A stretch of 32,000 nucleotides of DNA from Flavobacteriaceae bacterium (lineage in GTDB: Bacteria > Bacteroidota > Bacteroidia > Flavobacteriales > Flavobacteriaceae): positions 2,280,001 to 2,312,000 of the forward strand of contig OZ245049.1 in NCBI GenBank assembly GCA_965224465.1, read 5' to 3'. Shown piece after piece: positions 7,489 through 19,118 of this stretch (position 1 is its first letter; the number at the start of each line of letters is the position of its first letter). The position numbers were made by a program, and so were the translations under genes. The notes below the pieces were generated by a model. It was given only the letters and a program-made list of their open reading frames with translations, did no database searches and was not told the origin of the DNA.

Positions 7489-7842
7489 ATGGAAAAACTC
7501 ACGAATAAAGAAGAAGAAATAATGCAAGCATTGTGGCGTTTAGAAAAAGCTTTTATCAAAGAGATTGTTGTAGAACTCCCAAACGAGAATCATTACAATA
7601 CGGTTTCTACGATTGTCAGAAAACTAGAAGAAAAAGACTATATTTCTCACAAAGCTTTTGGAAAAACACATCAATATTTTCCTTTAATTTCAAAAACTAC
7701 TTACACAAAAAAATTTATGCATGAAGCGATGTCTCATTATTTTGACAATAGCTATAAAAATATGGTGTCATTTTTTGCCAAAAACGAGAAAATATCAGCC
7801 GAAGAGTTAAGAGAAATTATTAACATAATAGAGAAAAAATAA
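7489..7842 (+). CDS. BlaI/MecI/CopY-family winged-helix transcriptional repressor
   Basis: 117-aa ORF. The N-terminus LTNKEEEIMQALW...YNTVSTIVRKLEEKDYISHKAFGKTHQY is typical of the family. It is followed after 1 nt by an M56 peptidase gene. Confidence 0.9.
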   Translation: MEKLTNKEEEIMQALWRLEKAFIKEIVVELPNENHYNTVSTIVRKLEEKDYISHKAFGKTHQYFPLISKTTYTKKFMHEAMSHYFDNSYKNMVSFFAKNEKISAEELREIINIIEKK

Positions 7843-7843
7843 C

Positions 7844-9550
7844 ATGGAACTTCTTCATTATTTATTAAAATCAGGGCTTGTACTGGGGCTGTTCCTAACC
7901 ATATATGGTCTCTTCCTAAAAAAAGAGACGCATTTTCAATGGCATCGAATCTTTTTAAACACTGGTATAATCTTATCATTTGGGCTACCTCTGCTAATAC
8001 TCACACAAGTAATTTACATTTCTATTCCAGTAAGAGAACAGGTTATTCCACTTGTAAATCAAGCATTAACTACTCATACCAATACTATAAACTGGTCCTT
8101 TTATATAGGAATACTCTATTTTTTAGGCGTGGTAATAATGACGCTTCGCTTTTTACACCAATGCAATAGCCTCTACAAAATAATTAGCAAGAGTTCGGTG
8201 AGTAAATTAGAAAACCAACAATACCTAGATACATCCATTAAATGCACCCCGTTTTCTTTTTTCAACTATATCATCATCAATAAAAAACTACATACTGCCG
8301 AGGAAATAAGGATGATACTCACCCATGAAAACGTTCATAGCTCACAATACCATAGCTTAGACATTCTTTTATCTAACCTATTATTAATTATACAATGGTG
8401 GAATCCAATGGCTTGGTTTTATAAAAAATATATGGAAGAAAACATAGAATATATTGCTGACACAGAAACCATCAAAGAAATCTCTTGTCCCAAAGCATAC
8501 CAATATGCTTTAGTAAAAAACATAGTCTCAAACATCCAACCAGCTTTAGCAACTCATTTTTACCAATCACTTATAAAAAAAAGAATCATTATGTTAAACA
8601 AACCCACATCTAACAACATCAGTCGTTGGAAAACCATCCTCGTTTTACCTTTAATTGCTTTATTTTTCTGGACTTTTAATATGGAAGCACAATTTAAATT
8701 TGAGCAAATAGATAAAGAAGCAACACATTATATTGTGAGTCCAAAAACGCCAAAAATGGAATGGAATTCTATGGAGAAATATGCTAACTCAAACCCCTTT
8801 AAACTTACGGATACCCAACAAAATTCAAAGGAGGAAGCTACTCTTAAAACAATAACCAATTCTAACGATTCGAACACAGAAAAGCCAGCTTTAAAAACCC
8901 AAGGCAAAGAGCTACCCGTTACACCTGTTTTTACGAAATATAGTGCTGTAATTCAAACACAAGACAGTCTTATAAAAATTAAAATCCCCAAAGTATTGTA
9001 TGTCCTTAACGGAAAAAAAGTGTCTTCAAAAATTATCGAAGCCATCGATCCTGACAAAATTAAAAGTATAAATATCCTAAAAAGAAGTAACGCAACCGAG
9101 AAATATGGAATTAAAGCAACAAACGGAGCAATAGAAATATACACAAAATCCACAAATATAATAACAGCAACACGTAAAAACACCAAGCCTTCCTTTACCC
9201 TAAGCAACATAGAAACACCAAAGAAAGGTAACTCAAAAACCCCCTTATACATCTTAGAAGGAAAAGAAATTACCGCAGCTCAATTAAAAGACATAAAACC
9301 AGAGCAAATAAAGGCTATAAACGTTCTTAAAAACAAACAAGCTATTGCAAAATATGGACGTAAAGGAACAAACGGAGTCCTAGAAATAACACTAAAACCT
9401 AGCGCTACCAACACCCCCAAAAACACACGTAACATTACAGACGAAAAAGAAACAAACACAGATGAATTAGCTAAAGACAGCATAAAAATAATTCGCATTA
9501 TAAAAGGGAACCCAACAGTAAAAATCAACGATAAAAGAGGAGAAGAATAA
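7844..9550 (+). CDS. BlaR1-like M56-family membrane metallopeptidase, with two C-terminal TonB-receptor-plug-like repeats instead of a penicillin-binding sensor
   Basis: N-terminal transmembrane segments and the zinc motif HENVH with a downstream E (EENIEY). The C-terminus carries two paralogous modules: YVLNGKKV..IKSINILKRSNATEKYGIKATNGAIEIYTK and YILEGKEI..IKAINVLKNKQAIAKYGRKGTNGVLEITLK. Confidence 0.85.
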   Translation: MELLHYLLKSGLVLGLFLTIYGLFLKKETHFQWHRIFLNTGIILSFGLPLLILTQVIYISIPVREQVIPLVNQALTTHTNTINWSFYIGILYFLGVVIMTLRFLHQCNSLYKIISKSSVSKLENQQYLDTSIKCTPFSFFNYIIINKKLHTAEEIRMILTHENVHSSQYHSLDILLSNLLLIIQWWNPMAWFYKKYMEENIEYIADTETIKEISCPKAYQYALVKNIVSNIQPALATHFYQSLIKKRIIMLNKPTSNNISRWKTILVLPLIALFFWTFNMEAQFKFEQIDKEATHYIVSPKTPKMEWNSMEKYANSNPFKLTDTQQNSKEEATLKTITNSNDSNTEKPALKTQGKELPVTPVFTKYSAVIQTQDSLIKIKIPKVLYVLNGKKVSSKIIEAIDPDKIKSINILKRSNATEKYGIKATNGAIEIYTKSTNIITATRKNTKPSFTLSNIETPKKGNSKTPLYILEGKEITAAQLKDIKPEQIKAINVLKNKQAIAKYGRKGTNGVLEITLKPSATNTPKNTRNITDEKETNTDELAKDSIKIIRIIKGNPTVKINDKRGEE

Positions 9551-9608
9551 ATCCTAATTATCAAAATCAAAAAAGAAAAATAACTGGTTCTTATGCCCTA
9601 CGCATACA

Positions 9609-9639
9609 ATCCTTCTTTATCGAAAAGAGGGATTTTTTT
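9609..9639 (+). terminator. Rho-independent terminator of the blaI-blaR1-like operon
   Basis: ATCCTTCTTT (9609-9618) pairs with AAAGAGGGAT (9624-9633) with one G.T pair. A T7 run follows (9633-9639). Confidence 0.7.
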
Positions 9640-9698
9640 ATGCCAATTATTACCAACTTAAAATTAAGACTGCCTTCATAGATTTATTATTATTTACA

Positions 9699-9870
9699 TT
9701 TTCGACATTCGTGAAATAGTTAAAAAAGAAAACGACGAACTGAATTAACAGTCGCCGTTTCAACTATTTTAGCTCACCCTCTTTTCTATTTTCCTTTTCG
9801 GTGTTCGTGAAACATTTAAAAAAGAAAACGACGAACTGAATTAACAGTCGCCGTTTTAAATGTTTTCACA
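9699..9870. repeat. Tandem duplication (period 96 bp) of a long-hairpin module. The cas9-proximal copy is the tracrRNA 3' end.
   Basis: The core AAAAAAGAAAACGACGAACTGAATTAACAGTCGCCGTTT is identical at 9722-9760 and 9818-9856. The flanking arms differ (GTGAAATAGTT/AACTATTT versus GTGAAACATTT/AAATGTTT) but stay complementary within each copy. Confidence 0.85.
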
Positions 9871-9910
9871 ACGGAATAATCCTTATTGTGAATTGATTTC
9901 AAAATTGTAC
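9818..9910 (-). ncRNA. Predicted tracrRNA, transcribed divergently from cas9
   Basis: Minus strand 9909->9886 is UACAAUUUUGAAAUCAAUUCACAA, a perfect complement of repeat positions 2-25 in the GUUGUG sense, with a G.U opposite position 1. It is followed by UAAGGAUUAUUCCGUUGUGAAAAC (nexus-like), the hairpin CGGCGACUG-UUAAUU-CAGUUCGUCG, and the tract UUUUCUUUUUU. The exact 5' and 3' ends are estimates. Confidence 0.7.
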
Positions 9911-9911
9911 T

Positions 9912-9919
9912 CAAATATA
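9912..9919 (-). promoter_or_regulatory. Candidate -7 box (TATATTTG) for the tracrRNA
   Basis: A perfect TAnnTTTG on the minus strand directly upstream of the anti-repeat. I saw no clear -33 TTG. It predicts a TSS at roughly 9903-9908. Confidence 0.4.
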
Positions 9920-9954
9920 TGAAATAAATTCCGAATAAAGAGTTAGTGCGCCGT

Positions 9955-9962
9955 TATTTTTG
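9955..9962 (+). promoter_or_regulatory. Candidate -7 box (TATTTTTG) for cas9
   Basis: A perfect TAnnTTTG 34 nt upstream of the cas9 ATG. I saw no clear -33 element. Confidence 0.4.
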
Positions 9963-9995
9963 TAAATTAGTTGCTCAATACGCTAAAACTTTATT

Positions 9996-12900
9996 ATGAA
10001 AACAATATTAGGACTTGATTTGGGAACAAACTCTATTGGATGGGCCAATATAAAACTGGATTTCGATAAAAAACAAGGTAAAATCGTCGATGTTGGAAGC
10101 AGGATCATACCAATGTCAAAAGACATTATGGATAAGTTTGGAACAGGACAGTCTATTTCTCAAACAGCAAAAAGAACAGGCTATAGAGGAGTACGCAGAC
10201 TCTACCAAAAAGACAACTTAAGAAGAGAACGTCTACACCGCGTATTAAATATTCTTAATTTTTTACCAAAACATTATGCAGCAGCCATTGATTTTGAACA
10301 AAAACTAGGGCAATTCAAAAAAGGAAAAGAAGTAAAACTTAACTACCTTCCAATAGAAAACGGAAAAGATCAATTCATTTTTATGGATTCTTTTTTAGAA
10401 ATGGTCGCAGAGTTTAAAATAGCACAACCACAATTATTCTATCAAAAAGAAAATGGAGAAGAAACAAAAATCCCCTACGACTGGACACTCTATTATTTAA
10501 GAAAAAAAGCATTAACACAAAAGATAAATAGAGAAGAATTATCTTGGTTATTATTAAATTTCAATCAAAAACGTGGATATTATCAGCTTAGAGGAGAAGA
10601 AAATGAAAACGAAACAAAACTGGAAGAATTTCATTCTCTTAAAGTACTACAAGTTGAGGCTACAGAAGATAAAAATTCAAGAGGGATATGGTATAATGTT
10701 TTTTTAGAAAATGATTTAATCTACAAAAGACAGAGCAAAGACCCTTTAGACAACTGGATAGGAAAACAGAAAGAATTTATAATAAGCATAAACTTAGAAA
10801 AAGACGGAACACCTAAAAAGGACAAAGAAGGAAATATAAAACGGAGTTTTAGAGCTGTTGATTCGACCAAAGATTGGATTGCAATTAAGAAAAAAACAGA
10901 GCAAGACATAGAACAATCAAACAAAAAAGTTGGAACTTTTATTTACGACACACTACTTCAAAACCCTTCTCAAAAAATAAACGGAAAATTAGTTAAAACT
11001 ATTGAGCGAAAACTCTACAAAGAGGAATTACAATTAATTTTAAAAACACAAATAGAAAAACACACGTCTTTAAAAGACAGAGCGTTGTACCAATTATGCA
11101 TTGAAGAATTATACCCTAGAAACGAAGCACATCAAAACATTACTAAAGAAAGAAGTTTCCGTTATCTATTTATGGATGATATTCTATTTCATCAAAGACC
11201 TCTAAAGAGTAAGAAATCCACTATTTCCAATTGTGCGTATGAAAATAGAACCTTTTATTTAAAGAACAAAGAGAGTGAAAAATATGAAAAAATTACAGAA
11301 AGTTTAAAGGTAATATCTAAATCAAACCCGCTATTTAATGAATTTAGATTGTGGCAATTTTTAAAAAACTTAAAAATATATCAACTGAAAAATGAAGAAG
11401 ATATTGATATCACAGCACAGTGTATTGCATCCGAAGAGGGTTGGTGTTCATTATTCGACTTTTTAAACAACCGAAAAGAGGTAGAACAAAAACATATTAT
11501 AGATTTTTTACTAAAAACAGGGAAGTTAAACAAAACAGAAAAAACAAATTATCGCTGGAATTATCCCGAAGACAAAAAATACCCCATTAATGAAACACGT
11601 GTACAGTTCTTAAAGCGTTTAGAAAAAGTAACAGCTATAGACCCCCTATTATTTCTAACAAAAGAAAAGGAATATGCCTTATGGCACATTATTTATTCTG
11701 TAAAAGATAAAAACGAATATGAAAAAGCCTTAGGTACTTTCGCAAGGAAAAATAATCTTGACAAAGTTTCTTTTGTGAATGCATTCCTTAAACACCCACC
11801 TTATAGTTCAGACTATGGTTCGTATTCGGAAAAAGCGATTAAAAAACTACTGCCTTTAATGCGCCTGGGGAAATACTGGGACGAAAAGAACATAAACTTA
11901 GTAGTAAAAAATAGGTTAATTGCAATATTTGAAAGAATAGAACATATTAAAATAGACAAAAAAACATCGGCACAAGCGCTAGAGCTCACCTTAAAACAAG
12001 CTATTAAAGCAGTAGCAGATGACGATATTCCACCAGCATTAATTAAAAGTTTCTTAAATACAGATAAAAGTAAAGCCCTAAAAGGCTTAAACACCTACCA
12101 AGCCTGCTACGCTGTGTATGAAAGACACGCCGAAGTTAGTGAAATTATCCAATGGAAAACACCTAATTCCATTGACCAATACCTCAACAATTTTAAACAA
12201 CACAGTCTAAGAAATCCAATTGTAGAACAGGTTGTAACAGAAACCCTACGTACGGTGCGTGACATTTGGCAACAAGCATTAGATAATGATCCTACTTTTA
12301 AATTTGACGAAATTCATGTAGAATTAGGACGGGACATGAAAAACTCAGCTGAAAAACGAAAAAACATTAGTGAACGACAAACCATTAATGAAAACACAAA
12401 CGCACGCATTAAACTATTATTGGAAGAATTAAAAAATGATTATTCCGAAATAGACATACGCCCTTATTCCCCTAGTCATCAAGAAATCCTCAAATTATAT
12501 GAAGAAGGAGTAGGACAAAACCCTCATGTATCTTATGCTAAATTAGGAGAAGATGAAATTATAAAAATAAGAAGAAATGCAAAACCAACCAGTAATGAAA
12601 TCAAGAAATATAAACTTTGGTTGGAGCAAAATTACATCTCTCCATATACAGGAAACCCAATACCTTTAAGTAAACTTTTTACACAAGCGTACGAAATTGA
12701 ACATGTTATACCAAAATCAAGATTTTTTGATGATTCTTTAAATAATAAAGTAATCTGTGAAAGTGCTATAAACCCAAACCCATACAAAGACAACCAAACG
12801 GCTTATGAATTTATAAAAAACATGGGAGGAATGATTGTCCCAGAATTATCTTCCTCTCATAAAAATATAAAATTATTTACACTAGAACAGTATGAGAACC

Positions 12901-14725
12901 ACTGTAATAAATATTTTAAAAACAACCGAACAAAACTTAAAAATTTACTAAGTGAAGAAGTTCCTGAAGGTTTTATTCAACGCCAAATGAATGACAGTCG
13001 CTATATTAGTAAATTAATTAAAGGGCTGCTAAGTAATATTGTACGTGAAGCAGGAGAAAAAGAAGTAACCTCTAAAAATTTAATCCCCGTTAATGGAGCT
13101 ATTACCTCTAAACTAAAACAAGACTGGGGACTTAACAAACAGTGGAACGATATTATTAGACCACGTTTTGAACGAATGAATGAAATTTCTAATTCACAAG
13201 AATATGGATATATAGATTCCGTAAAAGACACAGAAGGCAAACCAAGTGGAGAAACTTTTTTCCGTTTAATTAGCCCTAAAGGAATCAATAAAAAACGAAT
13301 TGACCATAGACACCATGCACTTGACGCTATTATAATAGCATGTTGCACTAGAGAACATACAAATTACATTACTTCTTTAGATACAGCACGAAAAAACCAT
13401 AAATTAGTAGACAAACTACGATACAGAGAAAAAAGAGAAAAAAAGAACAAAAATGGAGAGTTAACACGTTTTTCAGTTGCTAAAGATTACATAAAACCTT
13501 GGGTAAACTTCCCTATAGAAGTTAAGAACGTCCTAGAAAAAATAATTGTAAGTTTTAAACAAAATACACGGATTATAAACAAAACCAACAATAAAACATG
13601 GCAATGGACTGTAAATGATGAAGGAACATTAAAGAAGAAACAAGTAAAACAAACAAAAGGAGACAACTGGGCCATACGAAAACCACTACACAAAGAAACC
13701 GTGTATGGTAGCGTACGTATAAAACAAGAAAAAAAAGGGCTCGTAAGCTTAAATTCATACCTAGATAAACCTGCACTTATAATAGACAAAAAAATACGTA
13801 AAAAAGTAACGGCTCTTAACAGCCTTTTCGACAACAACAAAAAGAAAATAGCAGACTACTTAAAAAAGAATCCTCTAGAAATTGACAAACAAAAAATTGA
13901 TAAAATAAAAGTTTGGGAATGGACTAAAAACGCAACGGCAACACGCACTCTCCTAAGTGATAAATTTACACGTAAACAATTAGATGCTATTACAGATAGC
14001 GGTATTAAAAAGATTCTAGAACACCACCTTCAAAATTATCTAGATGAAAACAATAAGGAACGTTTTGATCTAGCCTTTAACCACGAAGGGTTGGACATGA
14101 TGAATAAAAATATCACCCAATTAAACAATGGAAAAAACCATAAACCTATTAAATCTATACGTCTTTATGAAGAAGGAAATAGATTTGCAATTTCGCAGAA
14201 TGCAAACAACTTAAATAAGACTAAAAAATATGTAGAGGCTGCAAAAGGAACTAATCTATTTTTTGCAATTTATTGGAATGCCGAAAAACAAGAACGTGTG
14301 TATGAAACAATTCCACTACATGAAGTAATTGAATGGCAAAAACAACGTGCAGCTACAAAAGAATATCAACTCCCAATAATCCCTATTAAGCACAGAAAAG
14401 GAGAATTTCTCTTTTACCTTTCCCCTAATGATTTAGTATATGTACCTACTCCAGAAGAAATGAACAACCCAACACTTGTTGACTTTAAAAACCTATCAAA
14501 AGAACAAGTAATGCGGATATATAAAATGGTGAGTAGTACAGGAAATGAATGCCACTTTATCAATAATAGAGTTTCATCTTTAATTAAAAAGTATGATGCG
14601 AAATCAAAAATAGGTGAGTACGGTAGTTTAAATAAATCAGAAAAAACAATAAATGCAATACTAATTAAAAAAACATGTTGGAAATTACAAATAAACAGAA
14701 TCGGTAACATAAAAAACGTAATCAC

Positions 14726-14750
<25 letters not shown>
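9996..14750 (+). CDS. cas9: Cas9 endonuclease, type II-C, unusually large (1584 aa)
   Basis: RuvC-I ILGLDLGTNSIGWA (D8). Arg-rich bridge helix RTGYRGVRRLYQKDNLRRERLHRVL. RuvC-II IHVELGRD (E776 by my codon count). HNH YEIEHVIPKS..DDSLNNKV (H903). RuvC-III HRHHALDA (H1107/D1110). About 470 aa lie C-terminal to RuvC-III. cas1, cas2 and a CRISPR array follow. Confidence 0.97.
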
Positions 14751-15959
<1,209 letters not shown>

Positions 15960-16068: not shown

Positions 16069-19000
16069 CCTGTGATTGCTCACGTAAAAATACAATTTTG
16101 AAATCAATTCACAACTGTCCTCTCGATGATGCAGATGCATTATGTCCTGTGATTGCTCACGTAAAAATACAATTTTGAAATCAATTCACAACACGATGCA
16201 ATTAATTTGTCGTATGCTAGACCCTGTGATTGCTCACGTAAAAATACAATTTTGAAATCAATTCACAACAAATTGGACTGGTGATTTTGACGTTAAAACC
16301 CTGTGATTGCTCACGTAAAAATACAATTTTGAAATCAATTCACAACTAATCTCCTTGATAGTTTAACACTTCGTTTCCTGTGATTGCTCACGTAAAAATA
16401 CAATTTTGAAATCAATTCACAACGCCATTTTATCTAATTCTTAAAATTTTAAACCTGTGATTGCTCACGTAAAAATACAATTTTGAAATCAATTCACAAC
16501 TGTATTTAGAAACACGCCCATAGCAATCAACCTGTGATTGCTCACGTAAAAATACAATTTTGAAATCAATTCACAACTGAGGCTGATAGCCTTCTGTTCT
16601 TCAATTACCTGTGATTGCTCACGTAAAAATACAATTTTGAAATCAATTCACAACAATTGCTTGTAGTTAGCATCTACTCCTCCTCCTGTGATTGCTCACG
16701 TAAAAATACAATTTTGAAATCAATTCACAACATTCTACTAACCAGTTCATCATATAATCCCCCTGTGATTGCTCACGTAAAAATACAATTTTGAAATCAA
16801 TTCACAACAGTATCTAACAATAGTATTTTACCTCTAACCCTGTGATTGCTCACGTAAAAATACAATTTTGAAATCAATTCACAACGATTACATGTGTTAT
16901 GAAAAATAGTACATGCCTGTGATTGCTCACGTAAAAATACAATTTTGAAATCAATTCACAACTTAAAATATCATTATTCAATGTTGATATTTCCTGTGAT
17001 TGCTCACGTAAAAATACAATTTTGAAATCAATTCACAACTAAACTTCAGTGAATACTTCGCAGGTAAGGAACCTGTGATTGCTCACGTAAAAATACAATT
17101 TTGAAATCAATTCACAACAATAGATACTGTTTGTCAATTAAATATTATCCTGTGATTGCTCACGTAAAAATACAATTTTGAAATCAATTCACAACCAATA
17201 TGTCAGTATCAATATGTCAGTATCACCTGTGATTGCTCACGTAAAAATACAATTTTGAAATCAATTCACAACTAAAAGCCATAACTATTACATTTCAATA
17301 TCCCTGTGATTGCTCACGTAAAAATACAATTTTGAAATCAATTCACAACTGTTGTAATAACGAATAAGTAGTTGTATATCCTGTGATTGCTCACGTAAAA
17401 ATACAATTTTGAAATCAATTCACAACTATAAGTCGCCCTGATAGTTCTAAGATATGCCTGTGATTGCTCACGTAAAAATACAATTTTGAAATCAATTCAC
17501 AACAAGATCAGCGATCGCTTTTTCATGAGTCTCCCTGTGATTGCTCACGTAAAAATACAATTTTGAAATCAATTCACAACCATTTCAATTACTTCAAAAA
17601 CTATTTTTCCTGTGATTGCTCACGTAAAAATACAATTTTGAAATCAATTCACAACTTGGTGCGGCTGACGTGATTCAATAGCATCGCCTGTGATTGCTCA
17701 CGTAAAAATACAATTTTGAAATCAATTCACAACGACACAATGCATCTTTTGGTAACCTGTGATTGCTCACGTAAAAATACAATTTTGAAATCAATTCACA
17801 ACTAACGGCTTAAATGAATTTCTGTAAATCGCCTGTGATTGCTCACGTAAAAATACAATTTTGAAATCAATTCACAACGAAGGCTAATACATTTATTGAC
17901 AAGTAATTACCTGTGATTGCTCACGTAAAAATACAATTTTGAAATCAATTCACAACAAGTTTGTAGTTCCATATATTGAAGCATCTCCTGTGATTGCTCA
18001 CGTAAAAATACAATTTTGAAATCAATTCACAACTGAGGCTTACTAACCAGTTCTGAACTTCTATTTCCTGTGATTGCTCACGTAAAAATACAATTTTGAA
18101 ATCAATTCACAACAGTATCTCTTACTAAGAGTATTTTACCTTTTAACCCTGTGATTGCTCACGTAAAAATACAATTTTGAAATCAATTCACAACTATCCA
18201 TTGCGAAAATATCGTACATCATAACCCTGTGATTGCTCACGTAAAAATACAATTTTGAAATCAATTCACAACTTGATTTCGCTATTGGGTTTCTATCGGG
18301 ATCCTGTGATTGCTCACGTAAAAATACAATTTTGAAATCAATTCACAACTAAATTGTGAGAACTAATAAGTGTTGTACATCCTGTGATTGCTCACGTAAA
18401 AATACAATTTTGAAATCAATTCACAACCTATTTCTTTTATTAAACATTTGGAAATTTCCTGTGATTGCTCACGTAAAAATACAATTTTGAAATCAATTCA
18501 CAACTTACCCTCGTCAACTTCTGGATTTACAGCCTGTGATTGCTCACGTAAAAATACAATTTTGAAATCAATTCACAACATTCTGCGATGGTCTGTTTAA
18601 GAGCTATGTCCTGTGATTGCTCACGTAAAAATACAATTTTGAAATCAATTCACAACAACTAACAATCGAATCCTTAAGCGTTCCTACCTGTGATTGCTCA
18701 CGTAAAAATACAATTTTGAAATCAATTCACAACTTATAGCTTCACTTGCCTTTGATTTTTTAACCTGTGATTGCTCACGTAAAAATACAATTTTGAAATC
18801 AATTCACAACAGAGTATAAATCGGTCATTAAAAGACATATCCTGTGATTGCTCACGTAAAAATACAATTTTGAAATCAATTCACAACATGATACCAATTA
18901 TCAAATACAACTTGATGCCTGTGATTGCTCACGTAAAAATACAATTTTGAAATCAATTCACAACGCTTAGCAGGTTTCGTTCTATTGAGTAAGACCTGTG

Positions 19001-19118
19001 ATTGCTCACGTAAAAATACAATTTTGAAATCAATTCACAACAACAAACATTTGCACTTACTCCTTTAGTCCCCTGTGATTGCTCACGTAAAAATACAATT
19101 TTGAAATCAATTCACAAC
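16069..19118 (-). CRISPR. CRISPR array: 40 x 47-nt repeats, 39 spacers (22-34 nt, mode 30)
   Basis: The + strand repeat is CCTGTGATTGCTCACGTAAAAATACAATTTTGAAATCAATTCACAAC. In the inferred crRNA sense (minus) it is GTTGTGAATTGATTTCAAAATTGTATTTTTACGTGAGCAATCACAGG. I noticed no repeat variant on reading, and repeat plus spacer lengths sum exactly to 3050 bp. The strand call rests on the GTTGT 5' end and on the tracrRNA anti-repeat strand; that orientation has about 0.7 confidence. Confidence 0.97.

Follow-up and report, generated by a model that had tools for sequence, protein, structure and literature searches.

In 2013, Cas9 loci with CRISPR repeats as long as 48 nt were already distinguished in Bacteroidetes (PMC3737331), and a 'clade X' with 45–50-bp repeats appears in a catalogue of Cas9 orthologs from 2020 (PMC7606464). 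The covariance model CRISPRCas_38, published in 2022, describes a type II-C tracrRNA of Bacteroidetes. Its 599 instances are found exclusively in type II-C loci, 578 of them in Bacteroidetes; their usual place is no more than 100 nt upstream of cas9, and their anti-repeat matches long repeats (PMC9067536). A functional member is known from F. psychrophilum CN46, where Fp2Cas9 works with a 99-nt tracrRNA reading ...UACAAUUUUGAAGCAAUUCACAAUAAGGAUUAUUCCGUUGUGAAAACAUUUAAAGCGG... (PMC10309648; PMC12609912, Table S2). In 2025, this RNA was shown to support DNA cleavage in vitro together with a crRNA ending in GUUGUGAAUUGCUUUCAAAAUUGUA; the essential region of the tracrRNA is nt 25–64, and the 3' hairpin lies outside this mapped core, although truncations of the hairpin in an sgRNA reduced activity (PMC12609912). 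For the type II-C arrays of Flavobacterium, promoters encoded within the repeats have been proposed (PMC8092290, PMC10309648), and crRNA promoters embedded in repeats have been demonstrated in Neisseria type II-C systems (Zhang et al. 2013, as cited in PMC10309648 and PMC8092290).

The locus studied here lies in a window of 32,000 nucleotides, by which we mean the whole stretch of DNA that was analysed. Its Cas9 homologs, taken as the best 120 database matches, are 56–79% identical to it, the named ones coming chiefly from Flavobacteriaceae, and by this measure the source would be called 'Flavobacteriaceae-like' only. The catalytic positions of Cas9 (RuvC D8, HNH H903/N926) fall in invariant alignment columns. 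Neither csn2 nor cas4 was seen beside cas9–cas1–cas2, which fits type II-C. The repeat, which in the crRNA sense (minus strand) is GUUGUGAAUUGAUUUCAAAAUUGUAUUUUUACGUGAGCAAUCACAGG, also written GTTGTGAATTGATTTCAAAATTGTATTTTTACGTGAGCAATCACAGG, has a length of 47 nt, within the 45–50 nt of the long-repeat type II-C family, and the partner proteins of that family, Cas9, Cas1 and Cas2, are all encoded. The locus is apparently an intact, large type II-C system with ~40 spacers, and the tracrRNA completes its annotation. The coordinates of all features are collected in Table 1.

Table 1. Features of the CRISPR-Cas9 locus and of the predicted tracrRNA gene with its 3' extension, in window coordinates
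Feature	Position	Strand	Basis or remark
-7 promoter box TATATTTG, Bacteroidetes-type	9912..9919	-	TAnnTTTG, read from the sequence
Putative short-form tracrRNA, ~90–94 nt	9818..9909	-	covariance model R1; region fold z = -3.5
Anti-repeat	9885..9909	-	24 Watson-Crick pairs and one G.U with repeat positions 1–25, no bulge
Core UAAGGAUUAUUCCGUUGUGAAAACAUU	9859..9885	-	invariant or nearly so across loci; contains the nexus and the predicted mini-hairpin
Nexus hairpin GGA-UUAU-UCC	9882->9873	-	within the core; module fold
Predicted mini-hairpin UGU-GAAA-ACA	9870->9861	-	within the core; module fold
Linker L1 GUGAAAACAUUUAAAA	5' of the terminator 1 hairpin and U-tract	-	unit 1
Terminator 1 hairpin (AACGGCGACUGU...AGU-U-CGUCGUU, one bulge)	9826..9856	-	dG -10.5 kcal/mol
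U-tract UUUUCUUUUUU	9828->9818	-	follows the terminator 1 hairpin
C1 AAAUGUUUCACGAAC	9803..9817	-	complementary to linker GUGAAAACAUUU; closing strand of a long hairpin (9870->9803) that encloses terminator 1
A-rich spacer ACCGAAAAGGAAAAUAGAAAAGAGG	9778..9802	-	25 nt, between the two units
Unit 2	9707..9777	-	GUGAGCUAAAAUAGUUGAAA, hairpin same as in unit 1, U-tract, C2; without anti-repeat or nexus
U-tract of unit 2	9722–9732	-	after the hairpin
C2 AACUAUUUCACGAAU	9707–9721	-	3' end of unit 2
cas9 (1584 aa)	9996..14750	+	TIGR01865, E = 3.6e-110; partner protein of the tracrRNA
cas1	14726–15616	+	cas1_NMENI, E = 2e-87
cas2	15618–15959	+	cas2 profile, E = 9.4e-19
CRISPR array	~16069–19118	crRNA sense = minus	~40 repeats of 47 nt, period ~77 nt

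A preliminary description of this DNA had predicted a tracrRNA gene with a 24-nt perfect anti-repeat, divergent from cas9. The match is exact, since plus-strand positions 9886–9909 (TTGTGAATTGATTTCAAAATTGTA) equal repeat positions 2–25 with no mismatch in 40 of 40 repeats, the same letters being read on the minus strand of every repeat in the array. It is the sole match outside the array at up to three mismatches, where 0 are expected from 100 shuffles. Position 9885 is A on the plus strand, which gives the U predicted to lie opposite repeat G1 in a minus-strand RNA. Co-folding of the crRNA repeat with the tracrRNA, which had been suggested as a check, yields a duplex of -36.9 kcal/mol. When repeat nt 1–25 are fused to the RNA in the manner of an sgRNA, the anti-repeat folds as a 25-bp duplex and the whole molecule folds into four modules (duplex, nexus, GAAA mini-hairpin and terminator; z = -9.9) in the order of known Cas9 guide RNAs. 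The last Watson-Crick pair involves repeat position 25, where complementarity had been said to end; beyond it, at most three weak U.G/U-A pairs can form, in or beside the promoter box. The anti-repeat ends 86 nt from the cas9 ATG, and the gene is predicted to be transcribed away from cas9.

After the anti-repeat, the minus-strand RNA continues CACAAUAAGGAUUAUUCCGUUGUGAAAAC, or in a longer reading CACAAUAAGGAUUAUUCCGUUGUGAAAACAUUUAAAA. The order of parts given in the preliminary description, a core UAAGGAUUAUUCCGUUGUGAAAAC followed by a hairpin and then by UUUUCUUUUUU ending at 9818, was recovered, and the S. pyogenes and N. meningitidis scaffold strings that it had used for comparison (AAGGCUAGUCCGUUAUCAACUUG, CAAUAAGGCCGUCUGAAAAGAUGUGCC) both occur in the literature, for example in PMC8038530. 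The terminator 1 hairpin is followed by 4+6 U residues. A simple terminator scan did not flag this hairpin, which is bulged; the sole match of that scan was the plus-strand terminator of the upstream gene, at 9608–9634. As to the promoter, a sigma-70 scan is uninformative in Bacteroidota, and the TAnnTTTG box reported upstream is present as the reverse complement of 9912–9919, which fits the consensus and ends 26 nt before the end of UCACAA. On these landmarks, the short-form RNA would have its 5' end at ~9905–9911 and its 3' end within the U-tract 9828->9818. The earlier placing of the 3' end at 9818 holds in part: the hairpin and U-tract are there, but 9818 may be just one of two or three 3' ends.

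The comparison set consisted of 80 fetched Bacteroidota cas9 loci, whose Cas9 proteins are 45–79% identical to that of the window. About 70 of these 80 related genome loci, nearly all of those with sufficient DNA upstream, have an anti-repeat 20–300 nt before the cas9 start, visible on the cas9 strand as TTGTGA..., and the opposite-strand RNA runs on with the same core. Counting from UCACAA, nearly every one of the first 30 nt is unchanged across 62 of 62 aligned loci; the sole variable position of the core is A26, which differs in two of them, and the window is identical to the rest. The anti-repeat itself varies between loci and tracks each locus's own repeat, so that repeat and anti-repeat co-vary, in duplexes of 14–34 bp of which some have a one-nucleotide bulge and many do not. 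In 110 of 151 distinct loci (73%), a perfect TAnnTTTG is present no more than 54 nt upstream, compared with 3.9% of shuffled upstream regions, and the box ends 25–27 nt before the end of UCACAA in 71 of the 110, the modal distance being that of the window. Of the 69 genome-set loci, 68 have a hairpin and U-tract at the terminator position, and their hairpins represent 61 distinct sequences (median energy -10.7 kcal/mol, median z -3.5).

A covariance model, R1, was built from 58 loci with the window left out and comprises 89 positions. Run against the 32-kb window, it gave one strong match, 9911->9818, spanning model positions 1–89 of 89 with a score of 84.1 bits (E = 1.2e-15); the next-best matches, at 19 bits or less, were all array repeats. 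The nexus stem and the mini-hairpin never vary across loci, and covariation therefore neither supports nor refutes these two hairpins. An Rfam scan of 9500–10100 at E values up to 10 returned noise only and no tracrRNA family, as expected because the sole tracrRNA model in Rfam is of the S. pyogenes type. The gathering score of that model, RF02348, was not reached, and the window RNA is not a member of the S. pyogenes-type sequence family, though it would work in a similar way. We also considered phage-borne tracrRNA decoys. Seventeen IMG/VR contigs contain the core, all in the short form, and a cas9-sized ORF adjoins most of them, so that they resemble host loci whose contigs had been classified as viral. 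Literature searches with the core and the unit motifs as sequence strings found no papers.

The 24 nt on the plus strand are a copy of the repeat, and tracrRNAs are thought to be derived from repeats, according to the discussion in PMC3737331; the element might accordingly be a stranded degenerate repeat, or a piece of the plus-strand 5' leader of cas9, with no trans-acting RNA function. We regard this as very improbable. A decaying relic would not hold 24/24 identity, and the adjoining family-specific nexus and linker are invariant over Cas9 proteins that have diverged to 45–79% identity. The promoter box and the U-tract both point to the minus strand, as does the asymmetry of G.U pairs described below. 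Moreover, cas9 has a separate TATTTTTG box of its own downstream, at 9955–9962 (+). We conclude, with a probability of about 0.9, that minus-strand positions 9909->9818 encode the tracrRNA of a type II-C CRISPR-Cas9 system of the Bacteroidota-type, long-repeat 'clade X'. The original reading of the element as a tracrRNA is borne out by ~70 other type II-C loci, by the covariance model and by an active ortholog, Fp2Cas9, whose RNA has an identical core. The tracrRNA itself is ordinary for its clade and already known in kind, the family having been described and functionally tested before. For the 1584-aa Cas9, an sgRNA could be designed as repeat nt 1–25, a loop and then 9909->9818. Of some general use from the family as a whole are the invariant 30-nt core, the promoter box at its fixed distance and the -7 box inside the repeats.

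This last feature bears on how the crRNAs may arise. The last 22 nt of the 47-nt repeat had been described as lying outside the cover of the tracrRNA, and repeat nt 26–47 are indeed unpaired. Repeat nt 24–31 read TATTTTTA, a 7/8 match to the Bacteroidetes -7 box TAnnTTTG with A for the final G, and are preceded at a distance of 19 nt by TTG (nt 2–4). Related repeats have a perfect TAnnTTTG starting at positions 23–27 in 21 of 54 cases and a 7/8 match in 25 of 54, the window included. From the 7/8 box and the TTG at 19 nt, it appears that each repeat of the array probably carries its own crRNA promoter. Each repeat would then start its own crRNA near nt 36–40, and the tracrRNA would need to cover nt 1–25 only. 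In the scheme that we propose, transcription of the tracrRNA would start a few nucleotides downstream of TATATTTG, heading away from cas9, and the first 20–25 nt of the product would pair with repeat positions 1–25 in crRNAs from the minus strand of the array. Cas9 would bind the duplex, the nexus AAGGAUUAUUCCG and the next segment, UGU-GAAA-ACA, and the resulting complex would cleave PAM-flanked targets, for which the Fp2Cas9 ortholog provides the in vitro precedent.

A feature missed in the preliminary description is a tandem duplication of the 3' module of the tracrRNA, with a second copy at 9707–9777. It is evident as an 80-nt direct repeat, 9691–9770 and 9787–9866, which is 88% identical and has a period of 96 nt. 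The long hairpin of unit 1 has a predicted energy of -23.3 kcal/mol (z = -5.3) and that of unit 2 an energy of -19.4 kcal/mol (z = -3.85). Between the outer stems of the two units there are two compensatory pairs and one G.U that pairs on the minus-strand RNA only. Generalised over loci, a unit of this long form starts with a linker-like segment (GUGAGCUAAAACAUUYAARG), continues with a terminator-type hairpin and a U-tract, and closes with a stretch that is complementary to the linker. Small ORFs in 9551–9995 are short low-complexity frames only, and none accounts for the 3' units. A guide-like role for the A-rich spacer was considered and set aside, the spacer matching nothing else in the window when up to three mismatches are allowed and having no meaningful 11-mers. 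Nor do the units appear to be a dispersed repeat or MITE; across the window and ~10 kb around the 80 loci, the unit motifs occur beside the tracrRNA only.

The long form was found in 7 of the 69 genome-set loci, in Saccharicrinis, several Flavobacteriaceae, Chryseobacterium and Imperialibacter. A metagenome scan gave 93 contigs, with a second unit in most and three or four in some; units per locus were counted by a crude regular expression, and these figures show only that 2-, 3- and occasionally 4-unit loci exist. Literature searches for the long form, including the unit motifs as strings, found no description of it.

In an alignment of 65 distinct loci, 92.2% of the cells in the L1:C1 stem are paired, against 27–49% in slid controls. 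Double-change cells number 66, compared with 26.6 ± 4.0 in shuffles (0 of 500 reaching the observed value). G.U cells are frequent (~94) and A.C cells rare (no more than 5), and this asymmetry indicates that the selected structure lies in RNA of the tracrRNA sense, which must include C1. At loci where L1 differs from L2, C1 matches L1 and not L2, and the flanking motifs CAYGARYWCC and RYGAGCU are kept across families.

These data bear on the view that duplication or replication slippage at a palindromic terminator produced the tandem 3' units as a by-product, with their symmetry maintained by processes at the level of DNA and not by selection on RNA. There is something to be said for it. In the window, units 1 and 2 share an identical inner hairpin, which suggests a recent duplication or gene conversion, the 96-nt period is close to the length of the short tracrRNA, the number of units ranges from 1 to 4 depending on the locus, and the same hairpin 'cassettes' are met at different positions. 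Such processes would, however, be expected to produce Watson-Crick pairs on both strands, in place of the strong excess of G.U over A.C cells that is seen. In most loci, moreover, the hairpins of units 1 and 2 differ, yet each C fits its own L, and the two flanking motifs are conserved across families. We therefore consider an origin of this kind, without a part for RNA, to be unlikely.

Selection on the stem would require a transcript that contains it. The conserved covarying structure needs RNA that continues past the U-tract to at least 9803, so RNA reading through the first U-tract would seem to exist and to matter, at least in evolution; it probably extends to the second terminator near 9722. 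The extension can also be lost. In L002 and L013, which are short-form loci, the linker variant and the hairpin are those found in unit 2 of L012, a long-form locus, and this likeness suggests that deletion between repeated linkers can give rise to short forms. Such deletions would explain both why the long form is patchily distributed and why a few hairpin 'cassettes' recur at different positions.

How such a transcript would be used is a matter on which we can be only tentative. C1 pairs in cis with GUGAAAACAUUU, a stretch inside the region that Fp2Cas9 needs in vitro. A part of the transcripts probably passes the first U-tract; these molecules would form the closing stem GUGAAAACAUUU:AAAUGUUUCAC and stop at the duplicated terminator near 9722, and in them C1 would sequester GUGAAAACAUU, a segment of the region essential to Fp2Cas9 that is otherwise expected to fold into the mini-hairpin. 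The closing stem, if it forms, would thus occupy a segment required by Fp2Cas9, and the long form may be inactive and not part of the working RNA. The hypothesis that we prefer, albeit with low confidence, is that read-through of terminator 1 gives either a conformer in which the Cas9-binding tail is masked or a substrate marked for processing. The loci with a canonical tracrRNA and 1–3 tandem units would on this hypothesis make up a 'long-form' class, not described before, with a built-in regulator of the quantity of active tracrRNA.

It is also possible, though we would not call it probable, that the long form is the main functional transcript. The U-tract ending at 9818 would then be a weak or regulated stop, the RNA would run to ~9722 or 9707, and the L1:C1 stem and unit 2 would be integral parts of it, acting as an off-state conformer that hides GUGAAAACAUU, as an element that serves processing or stability, or as a second tail for binding Cas9. 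The covariation of C1 with L1, the bias towards G.U, the matching of C1 to L1 where the two linkers differ and the compensatory changes between the two units of the window all speak for an RNA of this extent, and its occurrence in distant taxa does so too. Against its being the main product, terminator 1, with its good hairpin and U residues, resembles the sole terminator of ~60 short-form loci, a short-form ortholog of 99 nt has full activity in vitro, and the extension is present in only 7 of 69 loci of an unbiased genome set and can be lost, as L002 and L013, which resemble L012 minus unit 1, illustrate. Returning to the preferred hypothesis, control by the extension over the amount or conformation of active tracrRNA would constitute a new cis-regulatory layer in Cas9 systems, and would be a caution for the practice of predicting tracrRNA 3' ends from the first terminator.

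Set beside the systems already described, the window element fits CRISPRCas_38 by the published description of that model, its own score having come from the separately built model R1. CRISPRCas_38 candidates are 32–109 nt long, so the model cannot include tandem 3' units, which the window locus adds. The Fp2Cas9 tracrRNA is alike in being encoded beside cas9, in having a GC hairpin and U-tract of the same kind and in its core CACAAUAAGGAUUAUUCCGUUGUGAAAACAUUUAAAG, which is identical in the window; its essential nt 25–64 correspond to the part that is invariant across loci. The 5' end of the Fp2Cas9 crRNA repeat is one base off that of the window. The Fp2 duplex contains a one-nucleotide crRNA bulge, reported to be important (PMC12609912), whereas the window duplex is perfect. 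The sequence of the Fp2 terminator hairpin also differs, and the C1 segment and the second unit, present in the window, are absent from the 99-nt Fp2 RNA.

The N. meningitidis system is likewise of type II-C, with an array read in the direction opposite to the cas genes, and it has the ACAAUAAGG junction 3' of the anti-repeat, as in the window. It differs in its 36-nt repeat with a sigma-70-type extended -10 box, where the window has 47 nt and TTG-N19-TAnnTTT(A), and the tails of the two tracrRNAs are unrelated in sequence. The S. pyogenes scaffold (RF02348) presents the same elements in the same order, namely the duplex, AAGG-nexus-CCG, GUU..., a GAAA-loop hairpin and a terminator, but it belongs to a type II-A system, in which the repeats are 36 nt long, the duplex is bulged and processing, from a leader promoter, depends on RNase III. 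Extra tracrRNA-linked segments that base-pair with a portion of the tracrRNA and alter the action of Cas9 are known from the long tracrRNA of S. pyogenes (tracr-L) and the scaRNA of F. novicida. These direct Cas9 to promoters and act by way of the anti-repeat or of a 5' extension, whereas the extra segment of the present locus is located 3', pairs in cis with the post-nexus linker and gave no target-like match within the window.

The 3' module of the predicted tracrRNA, which lies on the minus strand and divergent from cas9, is duplicated in tandem in the window. Each of the two units comprises a linker, a terminator hairpin, a U-tract and a segment complementary to the linker, and in both the terminator is enclosed by a long hairpin that is closed through this complementary segment. 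The layout is kept, with covariation, across many Bacteroidota loci, and no description of such an arrangement of 3' units was found in the literature searched. Convergent with the units is a plus-strand terminator that ends a gene pair encoding a BlaI/CopY-family repressor and a 568-aa protein, the latter with weak BlaR1-like and TonB/SusC-signature matches.

Comparison of the tracrRNA regions of three related loci bears on the loss of units. L002 and L013, both short-form, have a single terminator, GCGGTTCTTACGAATCGC, whose sequence is almost the same as that of the hairpin in unit 2 of L012, a long-form locus (GCAGTTCTTACGAATCGC); the unit 2 linker variant of L012 (ACATTC) is also present in L002. 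The pattern fits a loss of unit 1 through recombination between the repeated linkers.

[quoted passage not shown] Fold predictions for the free RNA allow this segment to form a CACAA/UUGUG stem with the anti-repeat's 3' end. These bases thus have three possible partners that exclude one another: the crRNA, the internal stem and the complementary segment of unit 1.

Features of the window and of related loci
Sequence	Feature	Position	Strand
Window	BlaI/CopY-family repressor (117 aa), then 568-aa protein	7489-9550	+
Window	Terminator of gene pair	9608-9634	+
Window	Tandem duplication	9691-9866	-
Window	Units	9870->9803, 9777->9707	-
Window	Post-nexus segment	9856-9872	-
Window	tracrRNA promoter (predicted)	9919->9912	-
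Window	-7 box, probable cas9 promoter	9955-9962	+
Window	CRISPR array	16069-19118	-
Window	Tandem repeats, 111 nt x 3.0 copies, 98% identity	23667-23998	
Window	Tandem repeats, 51 nt x 5.0 copies, 93% identity	24003-24258	
L002	tracrRNA region	9817-9900	
L013	tracrRNA region	9828-9911	
L012	tracrRNA region	about 9700-9913	
L027	Repeat-like sequence	about 9679-9705	

The tracrRNA core was also found on 17 IMG/VR contigs classified as viral (L174-L190). A cas9-sized ORF adjoins the core on most of them. Rather than phage decoys, these are probably CRISPR loci of the host, carried on prophage-like contigs or adjacent to them. In Mucilaginibacter arboris (L027), cas9 is preceded, 296 nt upstream, by a repeat-like sequence, TTGTGATTTGCTTTCATTC. 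It is followed by no nexus, the actual core motif occurring once, elsewhere in the locus, and possibly represents a stray copy of the repeat. The window's two tandem repeat arrays lie side by side in apparently non-coding DNA and show no relation to the CRISPR repeat.

Located 33 nt 5' of the cas9 ATG, TATTTTTG fits the Bacteroidetes -7 box perfectly and is probably the cas9 promoter, divergent from that of the tracrRNA. Each array repeat contains TTG-N19-TATTTTTA (nt 2-4 and 24-31, minus-strand sense), a 7/8 match to the -33/-7 promoter consensus, and a perfect TAnnTTTG is found at the same repeat position in 21 of 54 related loci. These boxes suggest that crRNA promoters may reside within the repeats.
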